A stretch of 64,000 nt of DNA. It comes from Polyangiaceae bacterium. Its GTDB lineage: Bacteria; Myxococcota_A; Polyangia; Polyangiales; Polyangiaceae. Under the pieces are notes generated by a model, which worked only from the letters and a program-made list of their open reading frames with translations, did no database searches and was not told the DNA's origin. Below are positions 6,277-42,675 of the stretch, one piece after another. Every line of letters starts with the position of its first letter. Within the stretch, counting starts at the first letter, position 1. The DNA lies in NCBI GenBank assembly GCA_050287085.1, contig JBNKBE010000008.1:32008-96007 (forward strand). Reading direction: 5' to 3'. The position numbers were made by a program, and so were the translations under genes.

Positions 6277-6304
6277 TTGACTCGCCGAACATCCTGCGTA
6301 TGCT
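6277..6304 (+). promoter_or_regulatory. Putative sigma70-type promoter of the tRNA
   Basis: TTGACT-N16-TATGCT ending 14 nt before the tRNA. Confidence 0.5.
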
Positions 6305-6318
6305 CCGCGAACTTTCAG

Positions 6319-6391
<73 letters not shown>

Positions 6392-8914: not shown

Positions 8915-9020
8915 GTGTGGACCCGAGCGCCGCCTGGCGTAGAGGCGCTCTGCGGCCTTCAGAAAGAGCCAAGCCGCGACTCGAGCGTGGGGTCTAAGGC
9001 GTGTGTTAGGCTATGGGCTG

Positions 9021-10175: not shown

Positions 10176-10206
10176 CGCGACCCGCTGGGCGCCGCCCCTC
10201 GAGCCT

Positions 10207-12864: not shown

Positions 12865-12967
12865 GAGGTGTCGCCTCATACCCAAATTGCCGATCCAAGA
12901 CGACCCTCTTCACATCACCGGGCCGGCCCGTTCGACGTGGGTGCAAGCGGCGATGCAAGCGGGCGCG

Positions 12968-17779: not shown

Positions 17780-20700
17780 TCAGCGTTCCGGTGCAGGCGC
17801 GGAGGCGGAAATCGCAGGCGTTGGGGTGAGAGGCCGTGTTGTCGCTTCGGGGAGTGGCGTGCGCGGCGGAGCGGGTTGGGCGACACGCGGAGGGTCGGCG
17901 GGAGCCGGTCCAAGCGATAGGGTTGTCGCGCCACCACAAGCGAGCCGGGCCGGAAGCCCCCGCGATTGCCACTGCCCGGGTGAGATGCCGAGGCGCACGT
18001 AGCGGGGGCCGCATCGCACTTTCAACCAGCGATTGGTCCGCCCCGCATGGCGACCGTGTACATATACGTTGCTCTCGATCGGGGAGCGGACCATCAGCCA
18101 GCCCTCGTTGGCGTCGAGCTGCAAACCGCCGCCGTCGTCGTCTGGCTCCGGCTCGCGGCTGCCCGCCAGCCCCGAGTCTTCGGCTGAGGCGGCGGCCAGG
18201 CCGCCGGCGCTGCTCGAAGCGTCCGATGAGGTCCCTGGGACGGGCTGTGCTCTCGGTTCGCCCGGACCCGCGCGCAAGCCGCCGGTCCGCTCGTGGGGCG
18301 CTGCCCCCTGAGCGCTTTGCTGCGCGGTAGCGACTGACTTCTGCCCTGGGTTCGCTCTACGGACCAGCTCGCGGACCAGCTCAGGATGTCGAACCAAGGT
18401 GTAGGCTAGGGCGGCCGCAGCGGCCAGCGCCAAGAATAGGACCCAGCGCGCGGCCGAGCGACGCTTCCGAGGCGGCGCGAACTCCGCATCGAAGTCCGCA
18501 TCGAAGTCCACTGCGGGGTCCACAGCGGGGTCCACAGCGGGGTCCACAGCGGGCTCCGACGCCAGGGGCGCGAAGCGCGAGGAGGTTGGAGCGTCGCTTG
18601 GGGCTCCGAGGGCGGTCTCGATGGCGCTCGTGTTCCCGGCGTCCGATGCAGGGGCGGCGGGCGCGGCTATTGCCTCGGGAGCAGGCTCCGGCTCCGGGCG
18701 CGGAGGAGGGGCGAGACCGATCCGCGTTGCGCCGAAGCGATGGGGCGTTACGGGGGCAATCTCAAGTCCGGCGGCGATGAGCGAGTCGTCCAACACCTCA
18801 TCGCCGGCCTGATCGGCGAAACTGAGCGGGCTCTCCGCGCCTTCGAGCTCGGGGGCAAGCGGCCCGTCAGCGGTGGGGTCGGAGGCGGACGAAAGCGACA
18901 CGAACTCGCTCGCTTGGGCGAGCTCGTCGGGGCTTTCCGACCTAGGTGCGCCCGCCCTCAGGTCGCTATTGGGTTTTGGTGGTGGCTGGGCGCTTGTGAC
19001 GCGCGGCGGCGGCTCGCCCGAATCGGGGGGGGGCTTGGGACCTGTTAGGGAAATGATGCCCAGACCCCGGATCTTGGTGGGCGGCTCGTCCCCGGGCGGG
19101 GCGACGCCGCGTGTGGGCAAGTCGCGTGTGGGCAAGTCGGGCGGGGTCGGCGCGGCGTGGGGGGCGCCCGGCTTGGCGGGGGCTCGGCTCGAGGGGGCAA
19201 GCGAGTTTCCCGGGCGCTCGCCACTTTCGGGAACCTCGTTCTTTTCTTCGAAGCCCAGTTCCTCAAAGCTGAGTGAGGACGGCGCGGTTGGGCTCTCGCT
19301 GGGTCGCAGCTGCCCTTGCTCAGCGCTCGAAGCCTCGTCGTCCGGCGAGAGTGCCGACTCCCTCGGGGCGTCTGCGTACGGGGCCGGGAACCGCTCACCT
19401 GCGGCCAGCGGCGGCGCTGAGGTGATGACTTGGTGGGCGGCGAAGGCTGGGTTGTGCTGGTCGGACGCCATCCGCCGCGGCAGGTCGAGGCGCGTTTGCG
19501 GAGCGGGCTTTGTCGAGCTTCGGGCGCTGTCCATGCGGGCTGCACCGTCCGGGCTTGTACCGCGTGCGCTCGCTCTGTCGGAGTCCAAGTCCGGCGGGCT
19601 TGTCGTCGAGCCCGGCGCGATGCTGGACAGCGCCGAGGCCCGGGCTCCGACCGAGCTCTGCCCAGGCGGTCGGTGCATCTGCGGCACAGCGCTTTGGCGG
19701 TGGCGCGGCAGCGTCGGCAAGGTCGGTAGGGTGGGCCGCTCGAGATCGGTATGGGCTTCTTCAAGAGCGCGACGCTCTTTGGACACCGGGCGCGAGCGCA
19801 GCCCAGCGGGTCGGCTGAGGAGATTCGCCCGAGGGCGGGCCGAGCGCGTGGCCCCCACGGGTGGGGCTGAGCCCGTGCCCGGCAGTGCGCTGTCCCGAGC
19901 GGCAGGGCTCGAGGGGGTACTATCCCTGGTCGGTCGTGGCGATACGGCCATGCCTGGCGCTCGCGACATGGACACCGGCATCGGAATACGGAACGGCGCC
20001 GTGGCTCGCGGGGGCACGCTCGCTGACGCGGGCGCTTTGAGGTCGAGGCTCAAGAACCCTTCCTGCCACAGCTGCAGATCCGTTCCCAAACCGTCGAGAA
20101 TCTGCACGGCAAACCCCGGGGGCACGTGCGGTCGCCCCTGCATTCCGTACCCTCGCGTCCAAACGACCCGCCCCTCCAAGCGCACGCGGCGATTGGCTGC
20201 CGGGGGATGCAGCTCCAACCAGACGCGGTCTCCTGGCGGCGCAAGGGTGCGAACGAAGAGACCGTGCTCGCTGACGCTGTAGGTGTAGCCAGCGTCGTCC
20301 TCTTCGTCTCCGGGGGCCCGAAAGAAGACCGTGCCGCCATGCAGCGCGCGCACGCCAGCTCGTCCCGATGACGGCGGCTCCGGATAGACCAGGTTCATCC
20401 CAAATAGGACATTCTCCGGCGGTCCATGAGACGACAACGTTACGGCGTGGTCGAAAGGCGCGACGTCGTCCCGGATTGCGGGCAGATCTCGCTGACGCGA
20501 GAGCACGACCCAGCGCAACTCTGGGTGGGCGCGTAGGGTTTCGGCCAACAAAGGGCGCGGCGCTTCCAGGTCGGCGTTGAAGACAACTACGCGATGCGCG
20601 GGCTCATCCTGGTATGGCAGGCGTTGCAGTTGCTCGCGCAGCGCTGCACCGGACGCGACCCGCAGTACATCGTAGTCCGCGTGTTGGAGCACCCGCTGCA

Positions 20701-21139
20701 ACACGTGGGCGCGCTCCTCGTCGGGTTCTGCAAGGATGACCTGGCCACAAGGTACTTGACTGCGCGGCGTCGGCCAAGGGCCGCGGGTGGCGCGCAAGCG
20801 AGCCCCCAGGCGTCCGGGGGTTCCGCTGGCCACCACGTCGTCCACGCCCCAGCGAAAGGCGTTGGCGAAGGCCAGATCGGTGATCTTCGGCGACAGCCCC
20901 AGAATCACCGCGCGGGAGCGCTCCGAGCGGCTCCTCACAGCCGAACAGAAGCGCGACGCACCGGGCGTCGTGAGGTCGACGATGAACGCATGGAAGTCCT
21001 CAGCATCGAGGCGCGCGATCGCGTCGTCGGCGCGGGCCTCGACCTCACAGGCCAGTTCCGAATCCGAGCACGCGCTCTCGGTGCCGGCAAGCACGCTGCG
21101 GTTCAGGTTGCCCAGCGTTAAGACCGTTGGCCGCCTCAC
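17780..21139 (-). CDS. Large bitopic signalling protein: pseudo-receiver domains, PilZ-like, Pro-rich linker, TM, PEGA-like C-terminus
   Basis: RAGVR and SVSEHGLFV...LEGRVVW...GFAVQI (PilZ-like); TM WVLFLALAAAAALAYTLV; GWLMVRSP...VYVHGRHAGRT (PEGA-like). Confidence 0.7.
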   Translation of the reverse strand: MRRPTVLTLGNLNRSVLAGTESACSDSELACEVEARADDAIARLDAEDFHAFIVDLTTPGASRFCSAVRSRSERSRAVILGLSPKITDLAFANAFRWGVDDVVASGTPGRLGARLRATRGPWPTPRSQVPCGQVILAEPDEERAHVLQRVLQHADYDVLRVASGAALREQLQRLPYQDEPAHRVVVFNADLEAPRPLLAETLRAHPELRWVVLSRQRDLPAIRDDVAPFDHAVTLSSHGPPENVLFGMNLVYPEPPSSGRAGVRALHGGTVFFRAPGDEEDDAGYTYSVSEHGLFVRTLAPPGDRVWLELHPPAANRRVRLEGRVVWTRGYGMQGRPHVPPGFAVQILDGLGTDLQLWQEGFLSLDLKAPASASVPPRATAPFRIPMPVSMSRAPGMAVSPRPTRDSTPSSPAARDSALPGTGSAPPVGATRSARPRANLLSRPAGLRSRPVSKERRALEEAHTDLERPTLPTLPTLPRHRQSAVPQMHRPPGQSSVGARASALSSIAPGSTTSPPDLDSDRASARGTSPDGAARMDSARSSTKPAPQTRLDLPRRMASDQHNPAFAAHQVITSAPPLAAGERFPAPYADAPRESALSPDDEASSAEQGQLRPSESPTAPSSLSFEELGFEEKNEVPESGERPGNSLAPSSRAPAKPGAPHAAPTPPDLPTRDLPTRGVAPPGDEPPTKIRGLGIISLTGPKPPPDSGEPPPRVTSAQPPPKPNSDLRAGAPRSESPDELAQASEFVSLSSASDPTADGPLAPELEGAESPLSFADQAGDEVLDDSLIAAGLEIAPVTPHRFGATRIGLAPPPRPEPEPAPEAIAAPAAPASDAGNTSAIETALGAPSDAPTSSRFAPLASEPAVDPAVDPAVDPAVDFDADFDAEFAPPRKRRSAARWVLFLALAAAAALAYTLVRHPELVRELVRRANPGQKSVATAQQSAQGAAPHERTGGLRAGPGEPRAQPVPGTSSDASSSAGGLAAASAEDSGLAGSREPEPDDDGGGLQLDANEGWLMVRSPIESNVYVHGRHAGRTNRWLKVRCGPRYVRLGISPGQWQSRGLPARLACGGATTLSLGPAPADPPRVAQPAPPRTPLPEATTRPLTPTPAISASAPAPER
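18482..18553. repeat. In-frame 12-bp tandem repeats (AVDP x3, then DFDA x2)
   Basis: GGGTCCACAGCG x3 and TCCGCATCGAAG x2 seen directly. Confidence 0.8.
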
Positions 21140-22077: not shown

Positions 22078-22527
22078 TTGAGAGCCGTATTGCAGCGCGT
22101 GGAGCGGGCCGAGGTCACGGTCTCGGGGGACGTTGTCGGGGCCATCGAGGCTGGAATCGTCGCTTTGGTGGGCGTGGGCGTCGCAGACACGCCAGCCGAC
22201 GCGCAGTGGCTGGCTTCAAAAGTGGCCACGGCTCGCATCTTTCGCGACGTCGCTGGGCTCATGAATCTCGACTTGCTGTCAAGCGGGGGGCATCTCCTTG
22301 CAATCTCCCAGTTTACCCTGTTTGGGGATCTGCGCCGGGGTCGGCGTCCGAGCTTCTCAAGGGCGCTAGCACCCGCGGAGGCCGAGCCGCTATTCGACTG
22401 TTTTGTCGCCGAATGTCGCGCGCTGGGGGTGGTGACGCTTACCGGGCGTTTTGGCGCTGAGATGAAAGTCAGTCTGTGCAATGACGGTCCCGTCACTCTG
22501 CTACTCGACTCGAAGAAGTTGTTCTGA
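22078..22527 (+). CDS. dtd: D-aminoacyl-tRNA deacylase
   Basis: RAVLQRV, SQFTL, RRPSF, NDGPVT; GGAGG upstream of TTG 22078. Confidence 0.94.
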   Translation: MRAVLQRVERAEVTVSGDVVGAIEAGIVALVGVGVADTPADAQWLASKVATARIFRDVAGLMNLDLLSSGGHLLAISQFTLFGDLRRGRRPSFSRALAPAEAEPLFDCFVAECRALGVVTLTGRFGAEMKVSLCNDGPVTLLLDSKKLF

Positions 22528-24212
22528 TGCTATTTGCCAGCGCTGACTTCTTGCTTTTTATCGTTCCAGTGCTGCTCTGCTACTGGCTGCTGCGCGGACG
22601 TGGCAAGAGCGGCCTTTGGCTGCTGCTGGCGGCTAGCTACTTTTTCTACGCCGCCGGTCCCGCTCCAGCGACTGGGGAGTTGCCTCCGGCCTGGTACTTC
22701 GTGGGTCTGCTGGTTGGCTCGACGCTGGTCGACTACATTTGCGCGCTCCGGATAGCGGCCAGCGCAAGTCGAGGGGTGCGCGCCGCATGGCTTGCGACCA
22801 GTTTGCTGGCCAATCTCGGTCTACTTGCGTACTTCAAGTATACGGGCTTCTGTTTGGACGTGGCCCGCGCGGTCGCCGAAGGCTTGGCTCTGCACGCCGC
22901 GATCCCCACCTTCGAAGCGGTGCTGCCCATCGGGATCAGCTTCTACACGTTCCAAAGCTTGAGCTACACGATCGACGTTTGGCGCGGACGCCTCGCCGCT
23001 GAGCGAAGCTTGCTGCGCTTTGCGGTCTACGTGGCGTTCTTTCCGCAGTTGGTGGCGGGGCCCATCGTGCGTGCGACCGAGTTCTTGCCCCAGCTGCGCG
23101 CTCCCTCGCGGGTGGGGGTTGAACAGGTAAACGAGGCGGTGTTTCGCATCGCCAAAGGCGTCGTGAAGAAGGTTCTTCTGGGGGACTTCATTGCGGCGAG
23201 CTTCGCCGATCTAGTCTTTGCTTCGCCCGCAGACTACTCGTCGCTGGAAAACCTGCTGGCTCTCTATGCCTTCACGCTGCAGATCTACGCGGACTTCTCG
23301 GGGTATTCTGACATCGCCATCGGGGTCGCGTTGCTCATGGGTTATCGCCTTCCGGAAAACTTCGCTCGGCCCTACCAGGCTGGAAGCGTCGGCGAATTTT
23401 GGCGTCGCTGGCACATGACTCTGTCGACATGGCTGCGCGATTACCTATTCTTCCCCTTGGGCGGTAGCCGTCGCGGCCGTGGTCGCAACTACTTCAACCT
23501 ATGGCTCACCATGTTCTTGGTGGGGTTGTGGCACGGCGCTAGTTGGAACTTCCTGGTCTATGCGAACCTCCAGGCCTTCGCGATGGTCTTGAGCCGAGCC
23601 TTGCGGGATCTCCGGCAGCTGCGTGGGCGTGCTCTCGCGTTGGTCGTGGCGGCGGCAGTTGTGGCCTTGGGTACCAGCGCACTCGTTTTTGGTGCCTTGG
23701 GCTTACCGTGGAGTGTGGGGTGGAAGTGGGTCGCTCTGGCCTGCGCGGGAGCGGCCCTGACGGCCCTGCTGCCGCTCGACTCCGTGGGAGCTTGGTCACG
23801 TCCCTTGCACGTTGTTCTGACCTTCCATTTCTGTGTTCTGTCGCGGATCTTCTTTCGAGCGCCAGATCTCGAACACGCCACCGCGATGGTGACCCAGCTC
23901 GCCTCCTGGGACGGCCTTGGGATTCGGCCGGGGCTCTTGTCTCTGCCCAGCTGGGTCGAGGCGGCGCGCGCCTTGCAATCGTCGCCGGCGTTGCGAGCTG
24001 GGCTGGCCTGGACCGGCGATTGGGGACTGGGACTGTTATTGGCGTTTGGACTGCTCATTCACTTCACGCCTAGCTCACTGCCGGAGCGCTGGGGACGGCG
24101 TCTCGTCGCCGCTCTGCCGGCACCCGTCTTGGGGCTGGCCTTGTCGGTGCTGGTGTGGATGCTTTCCGACTTGCTATCGGGACCGAGGGCCAATATCTAC
24201 TTCGCGTTCTGA
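22527..24212 (+). CDS. MBOAT O-acyltransferase (AlgI/PatA/DltB-like)
   Basis: LPIGISFYTFQ, FFPQLVAGPI, QIYADFSGYSD, FWRRWHMTLS, GLWHGA. Confidence 0.94.
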   Translation: MLFASADFLLFIVPVLLCYWLLRGRGKSGLWLLLAASYFFYAAGPAPATGELPPAWYFVGLLVGSTLVDYICALRIAASASRGVRAAWLATSLLANLGLLAYFKYTGFCLDVARAVAEGLALHAAIPTFEAVLPIGISFYTFQSLSYTIDVWRGRLAAERSLLRFAVYVAFFPQLVAGPIVRATEFLPQLRAPSRVGVEQVNEAVFRIAKGVVKKVLLGDFIAASFADLVFASPADYSSLENLLALYAFTLQIYADFSGYSDIAIGVALLMGYRLPENFARPYQAGSVGEFWRRWHMTLSTWLRDYLFFPLGGSRRGRGRNYFNLWLTMFLVGLWHGASWNFLVYANLQAFAMVLSRALRDLRQLRGRALALVVAAAVVALGTSALVFGALGLPWSVGWKWVALACAGAALTALLPLDSVGAWSRPLHVVLTFHFCVLSRIFFRAPDLEHATAMVTQLASWDGLGIRPGLLSLPSWVEAARALQSSPALRAGLAWTGDWGLGLLLAFGLLIHFTPSSLPERWGRRLVAALPAPVLGLALSVLVWMLSDLLSGPRANIYFAF

Positions 24213-24245: not shown

Positions 24246-26774
24246 ATGGCAGCTTCCCGTCCTCCTCCCTTTGACCGCGCTCGATTGAAAGCCAGTCTGC
24301 GAGCGCGCGCCGGTGGGCAGTCGACGCGTCCGCCGCCGCTGGTGCCGCCAAGACCCGGCCATTTGCCGGACAGTGTGCCGCCGCGTCCGCCGCCTTCCAT
24401 GCCTCCTGGCCCGCCGCGCCGCCTTCCGCCGGTTCCGTCGCGCGCAGGGAGTACGCTGCGTCCGCCGCCTCCGACGCTGCCGCCGCCTCCGCTGCGGGGC
24501 CTGGTTGGAGCTCCGCCTCGTCTGGAGTCGGTGGCACAGCCCAAAGCGCAGCGTGGGCGAGTTCCCCGACAATCCGGAACGCCCAGCCTTGCTCCACCGC
24601 CGCTACCGTCTTTTGCTCCTCCCGCTGGCGGTGCGGACAGGCTGCGTGAACGACCTAGGAGTCCCGGCCGCAGCGTAACTGTGCCTCCGCCGCGCAGCAC
24701 GTGGCCGGCGTCTCACCCCTTGCCCGCCCCGAGCGGGGGTCTGCGCGCGCCGAGCGAAGGCGCGCGTTTGGTGTCCGCGCCTCCGCCGGCGCCGGTTGTG
24801 CTTCGGCCGGGGCCGGCGGAAGAGCTATCCGCCGTGCAGCGCTCGGGGCATGACCTTTCATTGCCAGCGCCGCGCTCGCTGCTGACTGCATCGCCCAGGC
24901 CGCTCTCCGCGGGTCCGGCAAAGCCGTTGGAGTCGCGATGGCCCCTGGCCGGTGCGGCTCCCTTGAGGGGCTTGCAGCGTCCAGCGCTCGAAGTGGGAGC
25001 ACCGGACGTTCTGGGCAGCGTACCAGCGTCTTCTCACGCTACGCTCTTCGACGTTTCGGCGGCCGCGGCGGCCGAGGAGCACGCGCCCCCGGAACGTCAG
25101 CTCGGGGAGGTTTCGACGAGAGCCAAGCGTCGTGCCACGTGGATCGGTGGGGTTATGCTAGCCCTACTGGCCGCGACCTACGCCGTGCCCGGATGGCGTG
25201 CGCTCAGACCGTGGAGTTTCGAGCAGGGGAGCGTTCCTTTTTGGAATGTCGTGGGGCGAGAGTTTCTGGGCGACGAGCAGCGCGTTCGCGACGAAATGGA
25301 GGCGATTCGAGAGCTGAACGCTCGGACCCGTCGGGTCACAGCGGCGAGCGCTCGGAGCGCGGCGACTCGCAAAGTGCCCGCGCCGGCCGCACCCAAGGCG
25401 CCAGCGTCGGCGGGGTTGCCTACTTCGGCTCGAGACGTTTCGTCGCTCGAGGCAAAGCCTGAGGAGCTCCGCTTCCAACCCTACACAGGGCACGACGACG
25501 ACTCGATGGAGCCCAAGGTTCCCATCGAGAATCCGCAGCGCCTGGCCCGTTTCTTCGAGAAGCTGGCGCTGGCTGAAATGCAGCTTCCGGGCGCTATCGC
25601 GCGCGTCGGGCATTGGGGGGACTCGGTGCTGGGCAACGACGGGATCACGTCTGCGCTGCGTCGCCGCTTTCAGGCTCGCTTTGGCGATGCGGGGCATGGC
25701 TACCATCTTCTGGCGCGCTACAATATGGCCTATCGCCATCAGGGCATTCGCTTCAGTAGTCGCGGGCAATTCCGCAAGTGTGAGATCATCTTCAAGTGTG
25801 AGGAGGATGGTCGCTACGGTTATGGCGGCGTGACGGCTGCATCCTCTGGCGGCGGTACGGCGGGTTATGAGACGACGAGCGAGGGATGGGGCTCTGCTGT
25901 CTCGCGCTTTGAGCTTTGGTTTGCAAAAGGCCCCAAGGGCGGGAAGTTCCAGATCAAGGTCGATGGCGATGTGAGCGCCGTCGTCAATACCTTTTCCGAT
26001 TCGCCTGCCGACGGCTTCTACGAAGTAAGGGTGCCGGACGGACCTCATAGTTTCGAGGTGCGAGCCATCGGAGACGGAATCGCTCGCGGCTACGGGGTCG
26101 TCTTGGAACGAGACGTACCGGGCGTTGTTTGGGATGGGCTGTCGCTCATCGGTAGCTTCACGCAGCGCCTCGACTATCAAGAACCGGCGCACCTAGCCGC
26201 TCAGATAGGCCACCGGGACAACGACTTGCTCGTATTCTTGCTAGGAGGCAACGACGTCCAGCGCGAGCACATGGACTTGGTGCGCAACACCGCTCCCTAC
26301 GAAGCAGAATACACGCGGGTGTTGCGCAAGTTCAGGGCCGGTAAGCCTGAAGCGTCCTGTCTGGTGATGAGCGTGACCGATCATGGTGAGCGTTTGGACG
26401 GGGGGACTCTGCGCTCGCGTCGGATTATCCCACGGCTCGTGGCGGCGCAGCGCAAAGTGGCTGACGCTGAGGGCTGCGCGTTTTTTGATACATTTGCGGC
26501 GATGGGGGGCGACGGGGCTATCGTGCGCTGGTACCGCGCGCGCCCGCAGCTAGCGGGGCCCGATCTCGCTCATCCCACAACGCCGGGCCACGAGGCCATC
26601 GCTGAACTTCTCTACGCTGCGTTGGCGAAGGACTACGCACGCTTTCGAGAGGAACTCACGGGAGCAAGGCTGCCGGAGTGGTGGACGAGAGGGCGACGGC
26701 CTCTGGCGTCAGCGCCGGAGGATGGGGCCCGGCGCAGCGGGGCACCCCCAGCGTTCGGCGGGGCGGGCCAGTAG
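24246..26774 (+). CDS. Membrane-anchored SGNH/GDSL hydrolase or O-acetyltransferase with long Pro/Arg-rich N-terminus
   Basis: GDSV, GGND, DLAH blocks; TM WIGGVMLALLAATYAV. Confidence 0.82.
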   Translation: MAASRPPPFDRARLKASLRARAGGQSTRPPPLVPPRPGHLPDSVPPRPPPSMPPGPPRRLPPVPSRAGSTLRPPPPTLPPPPLRGLVGAPPRLESVAQPKAQRGRVPRQSGTPSLAPPPLPSFAPPAGGADRLRERPRSPGRSVTVPPPRSTWPASHPLPAPSGGLRAPSEGARLVSAPPPAPVVLRPGPAEELSAVQRSGHDLSLPAPRSLLTASPRPLSAGPAKPLESRWPLAGAAPLRGLQRPALEVGAPDVLGSVPASSHATLFDVSAAAAAEEHAPPERQLGEVSTRAKRRATWIGGVMLALLAATYAVPGWRALRPWSFEQGSVPFWNVVGREFLGDEQRVRDEMEAIRELNARTRRVTAASARSAATRKVPAPAAPKAPASAGLPTSARDVSSLEAKPEELRFQPYTGHDDDSMEPKVPIENPQRLARFFEKLALAEMQLPGAIARVGHWGDSVLGNDGITSALRRRFQARFGDAGHGYHLLARYNMAYRHQGIRFSSRGQFRKCEIIFKCEEDGRYGYGGVTAASSGGGTAGYETTSEGWGSAVSRFELWFAKGPKGGKFQIKVDGDVSAVVNTFSDSPADGFYEVRVPDGPHSFEVRAIGDGIARGYGVVLERDVPGVVWDGLSLIGSFTQRLDYQEPAHLAAQIGHRDNDLLVFLLGGNDVQREHMDLVRNTAPYEAEYTRVLRKFRAGKPEASCLVMSVTDHGERLDGGTLRSRRIIPRLVAAQRKVADAEGCAFFDTFAAMGGDGAIVRWYRARPQLAGPDLAHPTTPGHEAIAELLYAALAKDYARFREELTGARLPEWWTRGRRPLASAPEDGARRSGAPPAFGGAGQ

Positions 26775-26885: not shown

Positions 26886-29800
26886 CTACTCCGGCTTGCG
26901 CGTCTCGAGGATGTGGAATTCCACGCGTCGGTTGTTCTGCCGACCCTCGGCGCTAGTGTTGTCGTCCACCGGACGATCAGGACCGAAGCCCTGGGCGACC
27001 AAGCGCTCGCGACCGATCCCGTGCTGGACCAACCAGTCCACAACCGCCAGCGCGCGGCGCTCGCTCAGTCCCCGGTTGTGGGCGCGAGAGCCACGATTGT
27101 CCGTATGCCCTTCGACCCGGATGCGCGTCAGCTGTGGATTCTCCCTCAGCACATCGCGCACGGCCTCTAGGATTTCGTCACTCTCCGGTCGAATCGTGGC
27201 CTTGTTCGTATCGAACTCGATGCGATCGAGGATCACCACGCGCTCGGTGGTCACCTGTACGCGAGGACAGCCGTTCTTCTTGGGATCGGGATCCGGCTTG
27301 CCTGCTTCGTCGGGACAGGCATCGTCCTCGTCCAGGATTTGATCACCGTCTCGATCCTTGGGAGGCGGACAGCCGTGCTTGGCCTTGTCCTCGTTGGGCT
27401 CGCCCTTCTCGCGCACGCACGCGTCGACCTTGTCGATGATGCCGTCGCCATCCGTGTCGGGACAGCCATTGGTCTCCGGGTCGTCCGTAGCGGGCCCTTC
27501 GTCGTTCACGCAGGCATCTTCGTCGTCGATGATGCCATCGCCGTCGGTATCCTTGGGCTTCTCGGGGCAGCCGTGAAGGGTCGGGTCATCGCTGGCAACA
27601 CCCGGCACGTCTGGACAGGCGTCGTCGGGATCGTAGATGCCGTCACCATCGCGATCGCTAGGGGGCGGGGGAGGTGGAGCCGGCTTCACGATGTCGGGAG
27701 CCCATTCGAGCGACGCGACCATCCGGACGCGTGGGCTGCCGAGACCCGTCGTAAAGCCAGGGCCAGCTCCGGCGCCTAGGCGAAAGTCTCCGGCACGGTA
27801 GTGCAGACCCAATAGCCCCTCAAACGGCGTCGTGGCTTCGTCCAAGAAGCCGCCGAAAGCGTCAGAGACCACGGCATGGGTCCAAAGCTCGGGGCCGATG
27901 AGCAGCTTCTTGTCCAAGAGCCGTAGACCAGCAGAAACGCCGAACTGGAGATCTGTGCCGAAGGCTTCGCCGACGAAGTTTTCTCGCCGAGTGTGGATGT
28001 TGAGGCCAGCCCGCGCACTATAGGCGAAGATCCCCACGTCGCCGGCAAGGGCCAAGCGCGGGACGATGCGAACTTTGCCGTCGCTAGTGTACGCTTCTTG
28101 GCGGCCCGTGGGAAAGAACGCCTGGGCGCCGATGGCCATGGTGGCGGCGTCGCCATATTCTCCAAAGAGGCGGAGGTCAGCACCGAAGCGTAGATCTCCG
28201 ACGCCACCGCTGCGATCGGCACGGTAAATCGCGTTGTCGAAGCGTGCTTGCGCACCGCGCTGATAGGCCAGAATCGGCAGATTGAGTCCGAGTCGGAGGC
28301 GGTCAGCGATGGTGACGGCTGCGCCCAGGTGAGCGAATACCTGGTGTCGCACGACTGCACGGAGCTCATCGCCCGCTGCATCGTAGGCCACCAGCGGCTT
28401 GTACGCCCAGTCTCCTGTGATGCCCAAGGCCCAGCGCCCGCTGCCTCGCAGGTCGAGCGACTCGGCCCAGAACCAATCACTGCCGCGTTCCGCCGGGTCA
28501 AAGCGGTTGAGTGCTATGCCGGAGGGCTGGGCGGCAGCGGGGGGTGAACCCAGGGTCGCCAATGCGGTCATGAATAAGGCGAGGAACAACGCTCCGCCCC
28601 TGGCCGTTCGCGCCTTAGAGCGAGCAGGGCCTACTCGGCGCCGAGCCCAGACGCTGGCGGCCAAGCCGAGCAGCACAAGGCTGGGAGCCCAGGGCGTGCC
28701 GCCATGGGTTGGCGTTTGTACGGCGCACCGGAACCCGCCGCCTTTCAATGCTCCCGCTTGCTCGTAGACCACCTCGGAGTTGTCGTTCGGATCGAGGTAG
28801 TCCGGCGTGCCGTCGTCGTCGGTGTCTTTCGGCTTCGCGGGGTTGGCTCCCAGCTCGACCGAAGTACTCTTGCCGTCGCCATCGTCATCGGTATCGAGAT
28901 AGTCGGGGGTACCGTCGTCGTCGGTGTCCTGGGGGTTGGCTGAATCCGGACCGAGCTCGTCGATCGTTGGCTTGCGATCACCGTCATCGTCGGTATCGAG
29001 ATAGTCGGGGGTACCGTCGTCGTCGGTGTCTTGAGGCTTCTTGCCGTCGCCGAGCTCGTCTTGGGTCGGTACGCCATCGCCGTCGTCGTCGGTGTCGAGG
29101 TAATCCGGGGTGCCGTCGTCGTTGGTGTCTTGAGGCTTCTTGCCGTCACCGAGCTCGTCTTGGGTCGGTACGCCATCGCCGTCGTCGTCGGTGTCGAGGT
29201 AGTCCGGGGTACCGTCTCCGTCAGTGTCCCGACATTGAGTCATGTCGGGGCATTCATCGGCGTCGCTGAGCCCGTCGTCGTCAGTGTCCGGGCCGGAGGC
29301 GGCCTCGAGATAGTCGGGGACGCCGTTCTCATCGGCATCTCCGTTGTTGTCTCCGCTAGCCTCTTCGCCATCGCCGATTCCGTCGCCGTCAGCGTCCGTA
29401 TCGAGCCAATTGACGTCGCCGTCGTCGTCGACGTCGCCGCCATAGTCGATCGCGTCTTCGATCTCGGTCCGCGTTGGCAGTCCGTCCTCGTCATCGTCGG
29501 TATCGAGATAGTCAGCGGCGCCGTCGCCGTCGGTATCACGGGGCTCCTCACCCTGGCCGAGCTCGTCCCGCGTGAACAAGCCATCGTCGTCGTCGTCGGT
29601 GTCGAGATAGTCGGGGGTGTCGTCGTTGTCGGAATCCTGGGGAGCCTCGCCGTCGCCGAGTTCGTCTTGGGTGAGCACGCCGTCGCCGTCGTCGTCTTCA
29701 TCTTCCCAGTCGGGGGTGCCGTCACCGTCCGTGTCAGGGCAGTCCGCCATGTCGGGACACTCAATGATGTCGATCACGCCGTCGCCGTCGGTATCGATGT

Positions 29801-32336
29801 GATCAGCAGCCTGCAAGTAGTCGGGGATGCCGTCGTCATTGCGATCCCCGTCGCCCTGAGACTCCACCCTGTCGGAGGCGCCATCGCCATCGCTATCGGT
29901 GTCGAGCCAGTTGACGTCGCCGTCGTCATCTACGTCGTTGCCGAACGTTGCGCCGTCCTCTCGCTCCGTTCGGGTCGGAATGGTATCACCATCGTCATCC
30001 GGGTCGAGGTAGTCGGGAGCGTCGTCGCCGTCGCTGTTGCGCGGCGAGTCAGAGTTTGGTCCGAGCTCCTGAATCGTTGGGATCCCGTCGCCGTCGTCGT
30101 CCGGATCGTTCACATCCGGAGTCCCATCTTGGTCGCTGTCCGGGCAGTTGTTGGCGTCGGGGCACTCTGCGCTATCGCTCAGGCTGTCCCCGTCGGCATC
30201 ACCTGGCACGGGATCGGGCGGCTCGAGGTAATCCGGAACGAAGTTGTCGTTGTCGTCGCTCCGGCCTTCGGTCGCGTCGTCGATGCCATCGCCATCGCTG
30301 TCGGTGTCAAGCCAGTTGACGTCGCCGTCGTTGTCCTGGTCGTTGTTGCCGCGCGCCGTAGCGTCTTCGATTTCGTCTTCGGTGAGCAGGCCGTCACCGT
30401 CGTCGTCGCTGTCGAGATAGTCGGGCGTGCCGTTGCCATCGCTGTCTTGGGCGTCGGCGACGTCGCCATCGCCGTTGGCGTCAGGTGCCTCGTCTTCGGT
30501 GAGCAGGCCATCGCCGTCGTCGTCGTCGTCGAGATAGTCGGGCGTGCCGTCGTCATCGGTGTCCTGCGCCATCGGGGTGCCGCTGCCGTCGCCCGCACCC
30601 TCCGCGGCCGTCGGAACACCATCGCCATCGTCGTCTTCATCCAGGTAGTCGGGAACGCCGTTGCCATCGGTATCGCGGGCGTCGCTCGGATCGCCGTCGC
30701 CGTTTGGATCGGAACCTTCCAGCGCAGTCGGGATCCCATCTCCGTCGTCGTCGACATCGAAAACATCCGCCGTGGAATCAGCGTCGCTGTCCTGGGGGAT
30801 TCCGGACTCCGCGGCTTCGTCACCATCCGTCAGGCCGTCACCGTCTGTATCGGGGTTGTCAAAGACCGAGCCAATTTCGCATTCGCGCCCGTTGCTCAGG
30901 CCGTCGGCGTCTTCGTCTTCTGCGGGCAGGTACACGGTGAAGGCGACGTCTGCGAAGGTTTGATCGCCGAACACCCACGTGTCGATGAAGGCTTGTTCGC
31001 CCGGGCCGTTGTAGGTGAAGCCGCCGAGATCATTGCCAATCCAGCTGTGCCGATTGGCCGGAGAGGTGACGCCGTCGGGCAAGGGGCGCTCGGGCGTTGC
31101 AGGCGTGCCCCCGTTGGTGTTGTTCAAGCGCGAGTCATCCCAGTAGATCTGGGTCGCCGATTCCGCGAGCGTCCCCGGTTCGACCAGAGTCACGGCAATA
31201 CCGGGCGACAGTGACTCCACGTCGCTGGCCGTGAAGTGAAACTCCCCGGTCCGGAGGTAAAGCCTCGCCGCGTACGGGCTTCCGGCGGCCGGCAAGGGGA
31301 CGCCGCCTGCGTCGTTGCCATCCCACGTCACCTTGTTGAGCCCGGCGCTGGCGACCCCCTGGATGACCACATCACCTTCGGCTGGGTCAAAGGTGCCGTT
31401 GGCCGTTGCGTCGATCACCAGCTCGTAGGTCGCCGGCAGACTCGAATCGAATTCGAAGCTGCCCCCAACGCCTTGCAGTACCGCTCCGCAATCGCCGATC
31501 CCGCGAAAGTTCAGCTGCGGCGCCTGGGGTTGCGCTTTGATAGAGTGTGGGGCGCTCAGGTAGAGCGGAAAGTCGGCGAGAGTGGGGCAGAAGGCAAAGC
31601 CGCTCGGTGCAGGGTCGGTGCCCACCGCCGCGTTCACCTCCGCGAACGTGCGGCTCGAACGGGCCAGGTCACCGGGTAGCCCCAAGGTGCTTGCTGTCAG
31701 GCACATATTGCCCCCCTGAAGACCCTCGAAGTCGAGCTTCCAGAGGTACTCTGTGTCGGCGCTCACGGGCGCCCTGACGAAGAATGCGAAGCCGCGGGGA
31801 GCGGCGCCCGGAAGGGAGGTCAAGAAGCGCCAGTCCCGCGAATACAGTCGCCCTCCGCCAGCGGGCGTTGCTGCCGTATCGATCGGTGTTGCTGCGCTCG
31901 GGGCTTGGGGCGTGACCGATATGTCGAAGGGCTCCACGTCGCTGCCGAATTGCACCTTGTAGGTTCCGGGCGTGACCGGGACCGACAAGGGCGTAACGCC
32001 GTCCCCCGGCAGAGCCGCGGGCAGGGTATTGGCAGCCACCAAGCCGGTGGCCGCGGCGTCGATGTTGTAGGTGGTCGCGGCCCCCGTCGGATCGGTGATG
32101 GTGACGGTGAGCGCGGCCCCCCCTGGACCCCGCGCCGCTACATTCAGGAAGGCGTCGCCCGCCAGCACGTCGACAAATAGCTCCGTCTCGGCCTTCAGCC
32201 CCGCGTTGAAGTTGGGTTCAATTTGGCCGAGTTGTCCCGAGCCTTCCGCTTGAACCGCGCCGGGGATACCGAGCGCAAGCGCTCCGACGACCGCTGGCAG
32301 GCAGCGTTGGGTGATATTGAACGGACGCTTACGCAT
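26886..32336 (-). CDS. Giant surface protein: adhesin-like domain, Asp-rich repeats, internal MYXO-CTERM-like motif, second signal peptide, TraB-like barrel, TSP3 repeats, OmpA domain
   Basis: AGGAGG then ATG 32336; signal ...GAVQA|EG; many [12 protein letters not shown] repeats; [15 protein letters not shown] (TSP3); IEFDT, VEGHTD, LSERRA, NRRVEF (OmpA). Confidence 0.88.
29031..29212. repeat. Near-identical 99-bp (33-aa) tandem duplication in the Asp-rich stalk
   Basis: TTGAGGCTTCTTGCCGTCRCCGAGCTCGTCTTGGGTCGGTACGCCATCGCCGTCGTCGTCGGTGTCGAGGTA at 29031 and 29130. Confidence 0.85.
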
Positions 32337-32490
32337 GCTTGACCTCCTGGCCAGGTGAATACCTGGACTCTTGGGCAGGAGGTTAGACGGCCCCCATGTC
32401 GGGGCACAACCCCGGTACTGAGGAAAGTGGGCAGCCCTCAAGCCCGCATTCTGCGGCCCGTGGGCTGGTGTTTCACTTTTGAGCCGGCTC

Positions 32491-34029
32491 CTAGGGCAGC
32501 GTTGCCACGAAGTCCTCGCTCTGGCTCTGCAGCAGCGCTTGTTCGTCGAAGCGGCGCATCAAGGCGTCGCCCAACGCCATGCCCATCCGCACATAGCCGC
32601 GAGGCGTGAGATGAGTGTGGTCGGGGGCGCCCATGGCCGGTAGTGCACGCACCCAGCGGTCCATGGAGCCCTCGCCGCCCATGAACGCGTAGGCGTCCCA
32701 GAAGCCACAACCGAGCTTGTAGGCCATGGCTCGTTGCACTTCGATGATCTGGAGCAGGCGAGGCCGAGGGCGCCAGTTTGAGCCCTTGCGCCGGGGAAAG
32801 TCCCCTGGGCCGATCAGGAGGCAGCTGGCGCCCTGGGTGATGGCCTGAAGCCGAACCAACACGTCTTTCAGCTGCGTCTCGTAGGTGGTGATGGTTTGGC
32901 CCAGGTCCGTGCTTTCGTTCGTGCCGTAGGCCAGCATTACGAGTTTTGGGTTGCGGCGTTCGAGCTGTTCCCGCAGCAAGTCAAGGTCCCAAGTCAGTTG
33001 GTTGCTCGCGCGCGTGCCGCTGATCCCCAGCGTGTCGACGACAACACCTCGGCCCGGGCGCTCGACGGCCACACCGAAAAGACGCACTGGACCATCTCCC
33101 AAAGGACGGGCCTCAAGGGTGTGCCATCCGAGCTCGGTGTTGAAGCTGTAGAAACCCGAGCGGGGGCGTTCCGCAGCGGTTGCGATGCGCGCGACCGGAC
33201 CCCCATTGAGCCGTAGCTCAAAGGTACCGGCGTCCGGCTCGATGCCATAGAAGAGGTCGTAGTGTTGCGCGAGGCGGTCCGGGTCCTGCCAGTGCAGGGG
33301 TTTGATCCTTGCGAAGGACGAAGGGAAGCGACCGACGGCTGCGGCCCCCGCGAGTCCAAAGCGGCCGTGTAGCGGAGGCGTCTTCGTGCGCTGGGCGTGC
33401 TGGATCTGGAAGCCCTCGCTTTCAACGCGGGTGTCCAGCAGACGGTACCACTGATTGATTTGCGCCATCTGCACGAACCCCTGACCCCCGTTACCAAAGC
33501 GCTGCTGAAGGTAGTAGCGCAGATAACCCGTGTAGAAGTCACCCTGGGTGTGCGAAGCACCAAAGGCCGCAATGCGCAATTTCTCAGGCGCTCCGGGGGC
33601 CTGCCGCTGGTATCGCTGCAGCGCCTCGTGAAACGCCGAAAGGGCGCCCTCGTTTTCGATCGGCACAAAGCGCCCGAGCGCGTTGCCGTTTTCTCGCAGC
33701 GGCGCAGGCCCCTGGCTCACTACCTCACCGCGGGCATCTTCAATCAGCTCGTCACCGAGGATTCGCTGCTGGGCGTGGGCTCGTTCGCGGAGCAACGTGG
33801 GCGTGAGCACCGGCCCTGGCGGTTCGGTTGCCTGGGGGGCCACCGCCGGGGGGCGCTCTCTCACCGGCGGCGGCGGCGCCGGGGCCCGGTCACGGGGAGC
33901 GGCCGCCACGGCCGGGACGGGTGTTGCCCGCGCCGGGGCTCGGAGCCCTTGGCCCCCTCCGGGTTCGCCGCAAGCGGTGAGCGCACAAAGGGCGGCGACA
34001 CTCATGCGCTGACCGGACCGCGTCACCAT
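32491..34029 (-). CDS. SGNH/GDSL family lipoprotein (Ape1/PatB-like)
   Basis: Lipobox LTAC; FGASHT, YGTNE, DHTHLT. Confidence 0.82.
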
Positions 34030-37959: not shown

Positions 37960-38997
<1,038 letters not shown>

Positions 38998-39334
38998 CGT
39001 GGCGGAAGATGAGTCGGTCAGTCCGCGAACGCGGCAACGTTTCTTTGGGGACGTGCCGCATCTCTTCAATGCCGTCTGCGCTCAGCGGGGCGTTACCCGG
39101 TAGCTGTTTTGCTTTCCGATATCGGGTGGGCTTCGAACCGCGACGGGAGACGCGGATGAACGAAATGTGTCGCGCGCCTTTGCCGTTTGCGGCGAGGTCG
39201 AGCGCAGCTAGCCTCCTTCAGGAGACAATCTTCCAATGCGAATGCCCTCGATCCTAGCGCAGCCCGTTGCCGCAAGCCGTTGCGCGCTAAACAGCCGGGT
39301 TCGAGTCGGTCCGCCCGGATGGGAGTGGTGAGCG

Positions 39335-40186
39335 ATGGGCTCCTTTCGACGCTATCGGGATGGTGTTCTCGTTGTATTGCTGTTGGCCATTCCGTTCTTC
39401 TTTCTGAAGGCGAGCATCCGCAACCCGGAAGAGCTGAGCGTGGTCGAGCAGGCACTCATGCGCGTGGCCGCCCCTTTTGAGTACGTCAGCGCGGCTCTGG
39501 CTCGCACCGTATCGGGCGTCATTGGCGACTACTTCTACATGGTGGACGTCAAGGCTGACAACAACAAGCTGGCCTACGAAAACGAGCGTCTGCGCGCCAA
39601 GGTATCGGCCCTATTGGCGGTGGACGCGGAGAACCAGCGGCTCAAGTCGCTGATCGGCTTACGGGATAGGCTCGCTCCGGAAGCGGTGAGCGCGGTCGTG
39701 GTTGCAAAGGATACAACCAACTATTTCCGCGTGACCCGACTGACCTTGGATGCGCCTGCGACGGGTCTCAAGGAACACATGCCTGTCATAGCCGTGGGAG
39801 GGGTCGTTGGCACGGTGCAGCGTGTTGCCGGAGAGAAGGTAGATGTCCGGCTTTCCGTGGATTCCGGCTTCGGGGTGGACGTGGTCGATGAACGCACCAA
39901 GGCGCGAGGCATCGTTCGGGGCTTGGGAGACGAAGGAAAGTATCTGACGCGCGTGCAGTACATGGAGCGTGCCGACAAGGTCGACGTGGGTGATATTTTG
40001 CTCACCAGCGGCCTCGGATGTCGTTTTCCCCCGGGGATCCCGGTGGCGGAAGTGACCGAGGTTATCCCTAAGGATTTCGGGTCGTACCAAGAGGTATTGG
40101 CGCGACCGACGGTGGACTTCTCCCGTTTGAGCGACGTTCTCATCTTGTTGGAAGAGCGAGATAACTGCGAATCCGGGAGGCCCTGA
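39335..40186 (+). CDS. mreC: Rod shape-determining protein MreC
   Basis: N-terminal TM, ENQRLKSL coil, TSGLG.RFPPGIPV; follows mreB. Confidence 0.93.
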   Translation: MGSFRRYRDGVLVVLLLAIPFFFLKASIRNPEELSVVEQALMRVAAPFEYVSAALARTVSGVIGDYFYMVDVKADNNKLAYENERLRAKVSALLAVDAENQRLKSLIGLRDRLAPEAVSAVVVAKDTTNYFRVTRLTLDAPATGLKEHMPVIAVGGVVGTVQRVAGEKVDVRLSVDSGFGVDVVDERTKARGIVRGLGDEGKYLTRVQYMERADKVDVGDILLTSGLGCRFPPGIPVAEVTEVIPKDFGSYQEVLARPTVDFSRLSDVLILLEERDNCESGRP

Positions 40187-40237
40187 TGTCGGGGGCGGTC
40201 GGAGTGACGGGGGCGGTCGGCGAAGGAGCGAGCGGTC

Positions 40238-40759
40238 GTGCGTAACGCCGCGCTGCTCTTGATCGGAGTGCTATTGCTTCTGGTGCAGGGCAACTTGTAC
40301 CGCGTGCTCGGACCGATCGGAGCTTCCGGGGCTACGCCTAGCTTGGTGTTGCCGATCGTGCTCTATCTGGGCATCTCGGAACACTCGATGGCGAGGGGAG
40401 CGTTGCTTTCCTTTGGTCTGGGCTATCTGACCGACGTATTCGCGTCTGCGCCGATTGGACTTCTCGCGTTTACGTCGGTGGCCACGTGGTGGCTTAGTCG
40501 CGTCGCGGCCGTGCGTCTTAGCGCGCAGACGATCCCCGCGCAGATCGCCCTCACTTTTCTGTTTTCTTGGGTCGAAGCGGCGATCGTGCTGACCCTGCTG
40601 ACGATCTTTGGACGAGATCCGCAGCGTCCCGTGGAGATCGCGCGGGGTCTATTGCCTCATTGCGTGCTCACAGCTGCATGCTCGCCGCTGATCTTCCACT
40701 GGATGGGGCGCCTTCACCAACAGGGTGGTGTTGCGCGGAGTCCGGAGGTCAAGCCGTGA
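40238..40759 (+). CDS. mreD: Rod shape-determining protein MreD
   Basis: Hydrophobic 173 aa, FGLGYLTDVF, operon position. Confidence 0.85.
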   Translation: MRNAALLLIGVLLLLVQGNLYRVLGPIGASGATPSLVLPIVLYLGISEHSMARGALLSFGLGYLTDVFASAPIGLLAFTSVATWWLSRVAAVRLSAQTIPAQIALTFLFSWVEAAIVLTLLTIFGRDPQRPVEIARGLLPHCVLTAACSPLIFHWMGRLHQQGGVARSPEVKP

Positions 40760-42675
40760 GGCTCTTGGTTCAACGCAGCGACGTGGGGGATTTTCGACGC
40801 CGCTACCGTTGGATGGTCTTGGTCGTGCTGGCGACCTTTGCGGTACTAACGGGACGGGTTGCGCAGCTGCAGCTGGTCCAGGGTGAGAAGCACAAGGCAC
40901 AAGCGCGTCGCAACATCATTGGGCGTACGACGCTGGCCACGACCCGCGGGGTACTTCGCGACAAGGAGGGGCGTGTGCTGGCCGCCAATCGCCCCTCGTA
41001 CAACGTTTACATCGTCCCGGACCGTTTGGATCTGGAAACGACTTGGCTCGACCTCGCGAAGTACATGGGGCTGGAAAGCGAAGAAGAGGCACGCCTCAAG
41101 AAGCGCATCGAGGAGCAGGTGGGCCGCAAGCGCACTCAGCAGATGCTGCTGAAGGTGGATGTCAAGTGGGAGGTCTTTGCCGCACTTCAAACCCACAAGG
41201 ATGAGCTGCCAGGGGTGATCGCTGCGCCGATGCCTGTGCGGTATTATCCCTACGGCCAGTTGGCGGCGCACCTGCTCGGCTACATGCGTGAGGTAAGTCA
41301 GGAAGACCTGGTGAGGCTGCGGGGCAGCGGCTACCGCGCCGGGGATCGCCTCGGGGCGATTGGAGTCGAACGACGCTGGGAGAGCTACCTGCGCGGCCAG
41401 CGCGGTTGGCAAAAGCGCGTTATGGGTCGGCGTGCACGCAAGAACATCGAGGCTTTCGAGAATCAGTACCTCAAAGAGCCCCGCAAGCTGGAGCCGGTAC
41501 CAGGCAAAGATATCTCGCTGACGATCGATATCGAGCTGCAGCGTTCCATCGAGCGGGCCATGCGCGGTCAGTTGGCAGGTGCGGTGGTGGTGGTTGATGT
41601 CAGAACCGGGCGGCTGCTCGCGGCTCTATCGAAGCCGAGCTTCGATCCGAATATCGTTTCGGGCGCAGAAGGCACCAAGGCGATCAGTAGAGCGTTCGTG
41701 CGGATGTACAAGGACCCTCTGAAGCCGCTGCTCGACAAGACCATCTCCGCCGCCTACCCGCCGGGCTCTACGTACAAGCCGTTCACCGCTTTGGCTGGGT
41801 TGAACGAACGTTTGATTACGCCCTACTCTCAGGTCGAGTGTCGGGGCGGGTTCGAGTTTGGTCGTCGCTTCTTCCGCTGTACGGGGGCCCACGGTCGGGT
41901 AAATCTGCACGAGGCGATTGTGCGCTCCTGCAATACCTACTTCTATGCGCTCGGCGAGTTGATTCACATCGATCGCCTTTCGAAGATCGGGATGGACTTC
42001 GGATTTGGTGAGAAGACTGGCATCGGCGTAAACCCCGAGGCACGCGGGCGCATGCCTACACGTGCTTGGTATTCCAAACGGTACAAGGGTGAAGGCTTTC
42101 GTGGCGGCTTCACCCTGCTGTCGGCGATCGGCCAAGGGGCATCGACCGTCACCGTGATGCAGCTCGCGTTGGCGTATGCGGCCCTGGCCAATGGTGGGAC
42201 GCTCTACCAGCCCCAAGTGGTGCGTTCGATCGAAACCGAGACCGGCACACTGCTTCAGGAGTTTCCCCCTCGCGTTCGTCGCATCATCGACCTTCCTCCA
42301 GAGCGGCTGGGCATGATTCAGGATGCACTGCAGGGCGTGGTTGTCGACCGTCATGGGACCGCCCATAAAGAGGCCCTTGAGGGGGTCGACCTGGCCGGAA
42401 AGACCGGTACCGCAGAGGTAAGCCGGGTGACTCCGCGTGGTGTCGACCCGAAGACAGTGTGGTATTTCAATCGCGACCACGCTTGGTTCGCGGGCTACGC
42501 GCCGTCGGAGTCTCCGGAGATCGCCATCGTTGTGCTCGTCGAGCACGGCGGCGGTGGCGGCAAGAATGCCGTTCCTGTAGCGATGCGCGTGGTTCGCGAT
42601 TGGCAGGCGCAACGTGCACAGAAGCGCACCGAGCGCAAAGGGCGAGCACGGCAGGCGGCGGAGGAGCGTCTGTGA
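40756..42675 (+). CDS. mrdA: Penicillin-binding protein 2
   Basis: STYK, SCN, KTG motifs; GTGA overlap with mreD. Confidence 0.95.
   Translation: MRLLVQRSDVGDFRRRYRWMVLVVLATFAVLTGRVAQLQLVQGEKHKAQARRNIIGRTTLATTRGVLRDKEGRVLAANRPSYNVYIVPDRLDLETTWLDLAKYMGLESEEEARLKKRIEEQVGRKRTQQMLLKVDVKWEVFAALQTHKDELPGVIAAPMPVRYYPYGQLAAHLLGYMREVSQEDLVRLRGSGYRAGDRLGAIGVERRWESYLRGQRGWQKRVMGRRARKNIEAFENQYLKEPRKLEPVPGKDISLTIDIELQRSIERAMRGQLAGAVVVVDVRTGRLLAALSKPSFDPNIVSGAEGTKAISRAFVRMYKDPLKPLLDKTISAAYPPGSTYKPFTALAGLNERLITPYSQVECRGGFEFGRRFFRCTGAHGRVNLHEAIVRSCNTYFYALGELIHIDRLSKIGMDFGFGEKTGIGVNPEARGRMPTRAWYSKRYKGEGFRGGFTLLSAIGQGASTVTVMQLALAYAALANGGTLYQPQVVRSIETETGTLLQEFPPRVRRIIDLPPERLGMIQDALQGVVVDRHGTAHKEALEGVDLAGKTGTAEVSRVTPRGVDPKTVWYFNRDHAWFAGYAPSESPEIAIVVLVEHGGGGGKNAVPVAMRVVRDWQAQRAQKRTERKGRARQAAEERL

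Follow-up and report, generated by a model that had tools for sequence, protein, structure and literature searches.

In Myxococcus xanthus, the protein MXAN_5598 has been described as one chain with an N-terminal adhesin region, an internal MYXO-CTERM sorting tag and a C-terminal barrel with an OmpA domain; it was read as a fusion of two genes and compared with the pair TraA plus TraB, and its N-terminal part was proposed to be processed and anchored at the surface (PMC11980579, mBio 2025). The same account calls internal MYXO-CTERM tags rare, places the gene beside ftsA and ftsZ, and gives a model in which the Cys of the tag is lipidated, myxosortase cuts behind this Cys and type II secretion takes the protein to the surface (PMC11980579). 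The genes of the TraA/TraB pair overlap by 4 bases (PMC3325183). Here we describe a gene with this fused layout on the reverse strand of a 64,000-nucleotide stretch of DNA, called the window below, from the genome of a Polyangiaceae bacterium (assembly GCA_050287085.1, contig JBNKBE010000008.1, positions 32,008 to 96,007). One fused subfamily already carries a name at NCBI, AgmC. Outside this group, FbcH of Bradyrhizobium is a cytochrome b/c1 polyprotein from which cleavage at an internal signal peptide yields two membrane and periplasmic proteins; it differs from the present case in that its products are unrelated to the proteins discussed here, that it has no sorting tag of the C-terminal type and that none of its products goes to the outer membrane.

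Likened by its published description, MXAN_5598 is of the same kind as the window gene, in which one open reading frame encodes a surface region, an internal tag, a barrel and an OmpA domain; the tag was judged here by its layout and by homology to relatives that pass the MYXO-CTERM family model. The window gene is an additional member of this published, barely studied fused kind. A preliminary description of the locus had over-rated the design, which is not new, the layout being in print for MXAN_5598 (PMC11980579). For the window itself our analysis is mostly confirmatory, and it adds a member with its own head domain and in a different neighbourhood: the window gene lies between genes for GDSL-lipase-like proteins and not beside ftsA and ftsZ. 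The window gene also has a retained second signal peptide, which the passages on MXAN_5598 in PMC11980579 do not mention. In the preprint by Haft (10.1101/2023.06.07.544157), the words internal, fusion, fused, OmpA, polyprotein and TraB are all absent.

Two export architectures in a single reading frame

The gene lies in an uninterrupted open frame (26886..32441 on the reverse strand), and translation from the ATG at 32336 gives a protein of 1816 amino acids. Its parts form two series. The first starts with a signal peptide, runs through the beta-sandwich head and the Asp-rich stalk and ends with the Gly/Cys motif, the hydrophobic helix and the Arg cluster; the second starts with another signal-peptide-like segment and continues with the barrel, the TSP3 repeats and the OmpA domain. 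This continuous frame confirms the claim of the preliminary description that two export architectures stand in series in one open frame, and the positions given there for the tag, the second hydrophobic segment and the CGA and TTG codons (28637-28635 and 28589-28587) agree with the translated sequence. The GC content by codon position in the fusion gene is of the coding type, with 0.75 at the third position and 0.48 at the second. A scan for promoters and terminators gave no signal exceeding that of shuffled sequences.

The source genome is a draft assembly in 160 contigs, and a search of sequencing runs listed a single DNA run that holds the gene, perhaps its own source sample, and no RNA run. 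These points would fit the alternative that the fusion is an artefact of assembly or sequencing, or the result of a stop codon lost recently between two genes. A Logan contig bridges the junction with zero differences, although it possibly comes from the source sample and is then not independent. The CGA codon near 28635, which had been suspected of being a lost TGA, encodes the last Arg of a conserved RRR. The same in-frame junction recurs in 13 other loci, spread over 11 genomes, and in a set of 113 distinct sequences. Because all 113 junctions keep the signature described below, an artefact is ruled out, as is a stop codon lost only recently; we regard the chance that this explanation is correct as negligible.

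The C-terminal half of the protein was searched against 41 genomes, and 12 loci with long frames (L013-L024) were taken. The best matches lay in long frames, for example of 1755, 1806, 1729, 1544 and 1825 amino acids. All 12 loci have a Cys motif, a helix, RRR(R), a second hydrophobic segment, an A-x-A/Q site (the slash marks the predicted cut) and the start of the barrel, and a partly masked locus, L007, has the same junction; the junction is thus kept in frame in all 13 loci of relatives that were read, well beyond what chance would give. In a pool of proteins and locus translations, 260 sequences cover at least 80% of the barrel profile, and 118 of these have more than 400 amino acids before the barrel. 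The latter gave 113 distinct junctions, which were scored by a simple rule-based heuristic. Every one of the 113 has a Gly/Cys motif, a helix, a net-basic loop and a second hydrophobic segment (median lengths of 17, 7 and 18 amino acids for the first helix, the loop and the second segment), and the A-x-A site is present in 103. A search restricted to database proteins of 998-3178 amino acids gave 151 matches at E≤1e-10. The fused form is held by metagenome-assembled genomes of Polyangiaceae, by Myxococcus, Corallococcus and Archangium, by Haliangium ochraceum and by Bradymonadia. The fused layout is real and widespread, and it is a minority within the barrel family: 8 of the best 150 representatives at 50% identity are longer than 1000 amino acids with the match at the C-terminus.

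The search of database proteins also returned metagenome proteins of about 1200-1300 amino acids (P0101, P0107-P0109, P0111, P0112, P0117, P0120 and P0121) that join a TonB-dependent receptor to TSP3 and OmpA. These are a different barrel-OmpA fusion, matched through the TSP3/OmpA part only.

The junction: internal tag and second signal peptide

The internal tag of the window protein consists of GGGFRC, a hydrophobic helix of 17 amino acids and RRR, which is the three-part layout of a MYXO-CTERM tag. Its Cys1204 is the sole Cys between residues 1035 and 1574. Since 582 residues follow downstream of RRR, the tag is not C-terminal. The enzyme that the preliminary description had invoked for sorting is available, as the same genome encodes a myxosortase core protein (G000:C18; NF040914, 143.5 bits against a cut-off of 100). 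The genome also has nine MYXO-CTERM matches above the cut-off and a GspD secretin (480.7 bits against a cut-off of 351).

The loop after the tag helix has eight basic residues and no acidic ones, and it leads into the second hydrophobic segment (28622-28530), with an h-region of 15 amino acids and the site SPPAAA/Q, whose Q is at 28529. By its sequence, this internal segment has the basic n-region, the h-region and the small-x-small site of a signal peptide. Stand-alone barrel paralogues (L008-L012, about 600 amino acids) have Met or Val as their first residue, then basic residues and a hydrophobic stretch, with A-x-A/Q directly before GFALxRF; in fused forms, the internal segment occupies exactly the place of these N-terminal signal peptides. 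This match bears out the signal-peptide-like segment that the preliminary description had placed after RRR and, by position, identifies the second hydrophobic segment as the signal peptide proper to the barrel family.

The barrel, TSP3 and OmpA half

The C-terminal tail after AAA/Q comprises 547 amino acids. An AlphaFold model of the C-terminal half, made with 52 sequences, has a predicted local distance difference test (pLDDT) value of 93.2 and consists of a 12-strand barrel (about residues 30-276 of the model), a TSP3 stretch of irregular structure and an OmpA-like domain. The last of these is matched by PF00691 with 81.1 bits (gathering cut-off 27.2) and by many OmpA-type NCBIfam models. 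In Foldseek, the TSP3 plus OmpA part matched 5wtl, the periplasmic part of a Capnocytophaga OmpA (E 1e-20), and the barrel matched FapF (E 1e-11, TMt 0.62-0.72) and the COG4313 channel 4rl8 (TMt 0.70). PF13557 (COG4313 / Phenol_MetA_deg) gave 21.9 bits on the barrel against a cut-off of 22. The predicted window barrel superposes on the 12-strand barrels of FapF (5o65, 5o67 and 5o68) and 4rl8; however, the identity is only 12-16%, and both of these proteins are without TSP3 and OmpA domains.

The TraB model NF033763 gave 227.5 bits for the C-terminal half, against a cut-off of 700, and 43.4 bits (E 1e-11) for the barrel alone. Because the barrel, the TSP3 repeats and the OmpA domain are all present while NF033763 stays far below 700, the C-terminal half has a TraB-like architecture, as had been proposed, and is a distant homologue of TraB over the barrel and over TSP3 plus OmpA, without being a TraB equivalog. 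The window protein resembles TraA/TraB of M. xanthus in joining the features of a MYXO-CTERM surface receptor with those of a barrel/TSP3/OmpA partner. It differs from them in that TraA and TraB are the products of two genes, whereas the window has one gene, below the TraB cut-off, whose N-terminal half gave no match to PA14 or to Cys-rich repeats. A role of the window protein in outer-membrane exchange is not implied.

The head and the stalk

The mature N-terminal half starts with E-G-S-x-Q, a motif that all nine aligned homologues share without change; across these nine sequences, the head domain has an identity of 42-51%. The head is modelled as all-beta (pLDDT 77.7, predicted template modelling (TM) score 0.79). 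It has no match in Pfam or NCBIfam, Foldseek gave no clear match in the PDB (TM below 0.2), and a protein atlas search with it returned unnamed clusters only. A wide VIA search with head residues 238-443 returned generic sandwiches of the immunoglobulin (Ig)/fibronectin type III (FN3) kind only, the best with Z 10.7 over 97 aligned residues. The head occurs in 9 of 17 other searched genomes of the window's genus. Close head homologues of 998-3178 amino acids carry OmpA in 8 of 8 cases and, contig-end-cut or masked copies aside, the strong head matches in the 41 genomes are all in frames of 1473-1890 amino acids. An unfused form was sought among the close homologues and none was found in the 41 genomes; only a distant copy with 33% identity, in genome G013, is split. 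A distant head copy in the protein database starts a DUF11-type repeat protein of 1504 amino acids without a barrel.

A fused sub-clade has the same head and no OmpA domain (L021, at G011:C86, 1081-5514, and L022, at G015:C239). Here the protein ends about 45 amino acids past the barrel, with one TSP3 repeat, and the next gene is convergent and histidine-kinase-like.

The stalk comprises 717 amino acids, of which 31.4% are Asp, with 31 D-x-D-x-DG motifs. It has a TSP3_bac match below the threshold in Pfam and repeat matches to the BamM model in NCBIfam, and these BamM-like repeats are the sole NCBIfam match of the N-terminal half. The features of TraA (PA14-like, Cys-rich tandem repeats) gave no Pfam or NCBIfam match in the N-terminal 1234 amino acids at E≤10, in line with the earlier statement that this half is without the Cys-rich repeats of TraA.

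The AgmC-type fusions (NF047640, gliding_AgmC_N; for example P0039 of Myxococcus stipitatus) have the same junction and the same barrel/TSP3/OmpA tail, whereas their head domain differs from that of the window protein. The AgmC_N domain (cut-off 275 bits) had no match in the N-terminal half of the window protein, nor did NF047640 match in the window's own genome in a search whose positive control was also silent. The flanks of an AgmC-like locus, L019, do not contain ftsZ, and a literature search for AgmC with Myxococcus found no paper.

Proposed processing of the precursor

We consider it probable, by a modest margin, that the product of this one gene with two export architectures is cut twice. 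Myxosortase would release a surface protein with a lipid anchor, and signal peptidase I an anchor protein with the TraB-like barrel and the OmpA domain. In such a scheme, Sec would export the N-terminal part until the tag helix stopped the transfer, and the Arg-rich loop, with eight positive and no negative charges, would stay in the cytoplasm. The retained signal peptide would restart export, and signal peptidase I would cut after AAA1269, so that the barrel protein (residues 1270-1816) could enter the outer membrane and bind peptidoglycan. Following the published MYXO-CTERM model, Cys1204 would be lipidated, myxosortase would cut behind it and type II secretion would carry residues 31-1204 to the surface. 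A hairpin of about 65 amino acids would be left in the inner membrane, and the two products might act as a pair, like TraA and TraB. Both cuts and the 1:1 complex are predictions from the sequence. If both cuts happen, the gene would encode a natural bacterial polyprotein that provides equal numbers of a surface protein and of its partner, which sits in the outer membrane and is bound to the cell wall, and it would offer a natural substrate for testing myxosortase on a tag that is not terminal.

Several observations weigh against this scheme, and some of them concern the tag. With TIGR03901, the MYXO-CTERM model with a curated cut-off of 20 bits, the window tag scored 11.3 bits (E 0.35 on a piece of 49 amino acids), and it was not among the matches of a genome-wide scan at E≤1. 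An Arg stands beside its Cys, where the closest relatives have Gly. The junctions of 4 of the 12 relatives are also below the threshold (one at 19.6 bits, three at 12.6-13.4), and those of two others gave no match. The internal MYXO-CTERM tag of the preliminary description thus stands as regards its layout of Gly/Cys motif, helix and RRR, and does not stand as regards the profile hidden Markov model run on the segment. The low score and the Arg next to the Cys speak for the alternative that the degenerate tag goes unrecognised and signal peptidase I cuts alone; the N-terminal part would then stay held by its helix in the inner membrane or be moved together with the helix, and without myxosortase, a small fraction of a client protein is reported to reach the surface uncleaved (PMC11980579). 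Nevertheless, neither the three-part layout nor the single Cys has been lost, and TIGR03901 passes at the homologous place in 6 of the 12 relatives (37.9, 30.6, 28.9, 26.9, 23.6 and 21.9 bits), among them a closest relative, L014, with 23.6 bits. Moreover, true C-terminal tags of paralogous adhesins in the lineage scored 12.9, 14.0 and 27.5 bits. Because C-terminal tags in the lineage also score low, a low score alone is no argument against function, and we consider cleavage by signal peptidase I alone to be unlikely, though it is the strongest of the alternatives.

A further point on the opposing side is that an in-frame TTG (28589) and an in-frame ATG (28571) are found within the second hydrophobic segment, after the purine-rich stretch AGGGGCGGAG. 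The barrel might then be made mainly from a start of its own; the frame would act as an operon that lacks a stop, and freeing the barrel would require no cut. However, either start would leave no charged n-region, whereas the stand-alone paralogues begin with Met or Val and then basic residues. The starts are also not conserved: of the eight junctions of fused forms that were displayed, that of L014 lacks any ATG, GTG or TTG downstream of RRR, and a start before the basic residues, which would leave a charged n-region, occurs in L018 only. We therefore regard a barrel made mainly from its own start as improbable, while minor separate initiation may occur in the window copy.

We found no experiment on any internal-tag protein in the literature, and the passages of PMC11980579 on MXAN_5598 only propose processing, so that cleavage is demonstrated there for no member of the fused kind. 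This would be compatible with an uncut protein that spans the envelope as a single chain. A barrel tied to two inner-membrane helices, however, would be unable to get to the outer membrane; 103 of the 113 fused junctions have retained the A-x-A site, and the same halves exist as separate genes. The uncut chain appears to us very improbable.

The last reservation concerns the name given to the surface product. As the head matches only generic Ig/FN3-type sandwiches and unnamed clusters, we infer "adhesin" for the N-terminal half from the architecture.

Split gene pairs and the proposed partnership of the two halves

The processing into two partners proposed above is paralleled by split gene pairs. 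The window's own genome holds a split module (L028, G000:C4:79500-89500; barrel gene 1826-3814, adhesin gene 3811-8199), in which a barrel/TSP3/OmpA gene of 662 codons overlaps by 4 nucleotides with the start of a gene for an Asp-rich protein of 1462 amino acids. The C-terminus of this adhesin has a Cys, a helix and RRRRR (TIGR03901, 14 bits). The order of the genes, barrel and then adhesin, is the reverse of that in traA-traB. At L029 (G013:C207:2500-18000; 1317-6778 and 7315-13481), two pairs of barrel gene and adhesin gene stand in tandem. In the first pair the end of the barrel gene and the start of the adhesin gene share 4 nucleotides, and in the second the barrel gene lies directly before a gene for a tagged adhesin of the EGSAQ type, which has a head of the window type (31% identity, E 9e-27) and a C-terminal MYXO-CTERM match of 27.5 bits. 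The existence of split barrel-adhesin pairs with a 4-nucleotide overlap, as in traA/traB, argues for a partnership of the two halves.

Over 1543 columns, the adhesin of L028 shares 39% identity with the N-terminal part of the fused L023 protein, and the barrels of the two loci are sisters in the tree (SH-aLRT 100). In a FastTree tree of 252 distinct barrels, 113 of them fused, the state changes between fused and solo at least 16 times, with poorly supported deep branches and in a sample biased by the way in which it was gathered; label shuffles gave 79-86 changes in the first five of 200. The quick tree gave no resolved relation of the window barrel clade as sister of the barrel of the second, EGSAQ-type pair of L029. 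Tandem arrays like L029 could be a source of adhesin-barrel fusions by deletion.

The more than 100 fusions with one junction design, the pairs with 4-nucleotide overlaps and the FapF-like barrel suggest that TraA/TraB is one case of a wider adhesin-plus-barrel family in Myxococcota. Such a family would help to explain how the cell surface is built in this phylum. As a tentative extension, which at present we would rather doubt than accept, Myxococcota may hold a large unnamed class of TraAB-like modules, each with a lipid-tagged adhesin and a FapF-like barrel/OmpA protein that docks or even conducts the adhesin; these modules would often switch between overlapping gene pairs and single precursors with a self-excising hairpin, which would give equal numbers of both products at one site.

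Coordinates and genomic neighbourhood

The coordinates of the gene and of its parts are collected in Table 1.

Table 1. Features of the fusion gene, in positions of the window.
Feature	Position	Strand	Basis
Whole fusion gene	26886..32336	-	1816 codons + stop (stop 26886-26888)
N-terminal signal peptide MRKRPF...GAVQA/EGS, residues 1-30	32247..32336	-	read from sequence
Head domain, 443 aa (amino acids), all-beta, no named family	30918..32246	-	alignment + predicted structure
Asp-rich TSP3-type (calcium-binding-like) repeat stalk, residues 474-1190	28767..30917	-	composition, repeat matches
Internal MYXO-CTERM-like tag: Gly/Cys motif, helix, RRR	28635..28754	-	layout; TIGR03901 below cut-off
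Basic loop + retained signal peptide, predicted signal peptidase I site AAA/Q	28530..28634	-	read from sequence
Outer-membrane beta-barrel with conserved N-terminal motif	27675..28529	-	model, Foldseek, TraB hidden Markov model
Periplasmic TSP3 repeats of anchor half	27270..27674	-	Pfam TSP_3, 21 bits vs 25; Foldseek
OmpA-like peptidoglycan-binding domain	26889..27269	-	PF00691, NCBIfam, fold matches

On one side of the fusion gene lie a gene for an MBOAT acyltransferase (22527-24212, forward strand) and then one of the GDSL-lipase-like genes (24246-26774, forward strand), and the second GDSL-like gene lies on the other flank (32491-34029, reverse strand). The MBOAT and GDSL genes resemble gene sets for polysaccharide O-acetylation, with no known link to the adhesin. 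A cluster of mreB, mreC and a gene for a PBP2-type transpeptidase (37963-42675, forward strand) is about 5.6 kilobases from the fusion gene. The window gene near the mre cluster and MXAN_5598 near ftsA and ftsZ, as described in PMC11980579, both stand by genes for the cell wall and cell shape, which may be a coincidence. Further away (17780-21139, reverse strand), the window encodes a protein of 1119 amino acids whose sole family match is a weak one to PilZ, with 24.6 bits.

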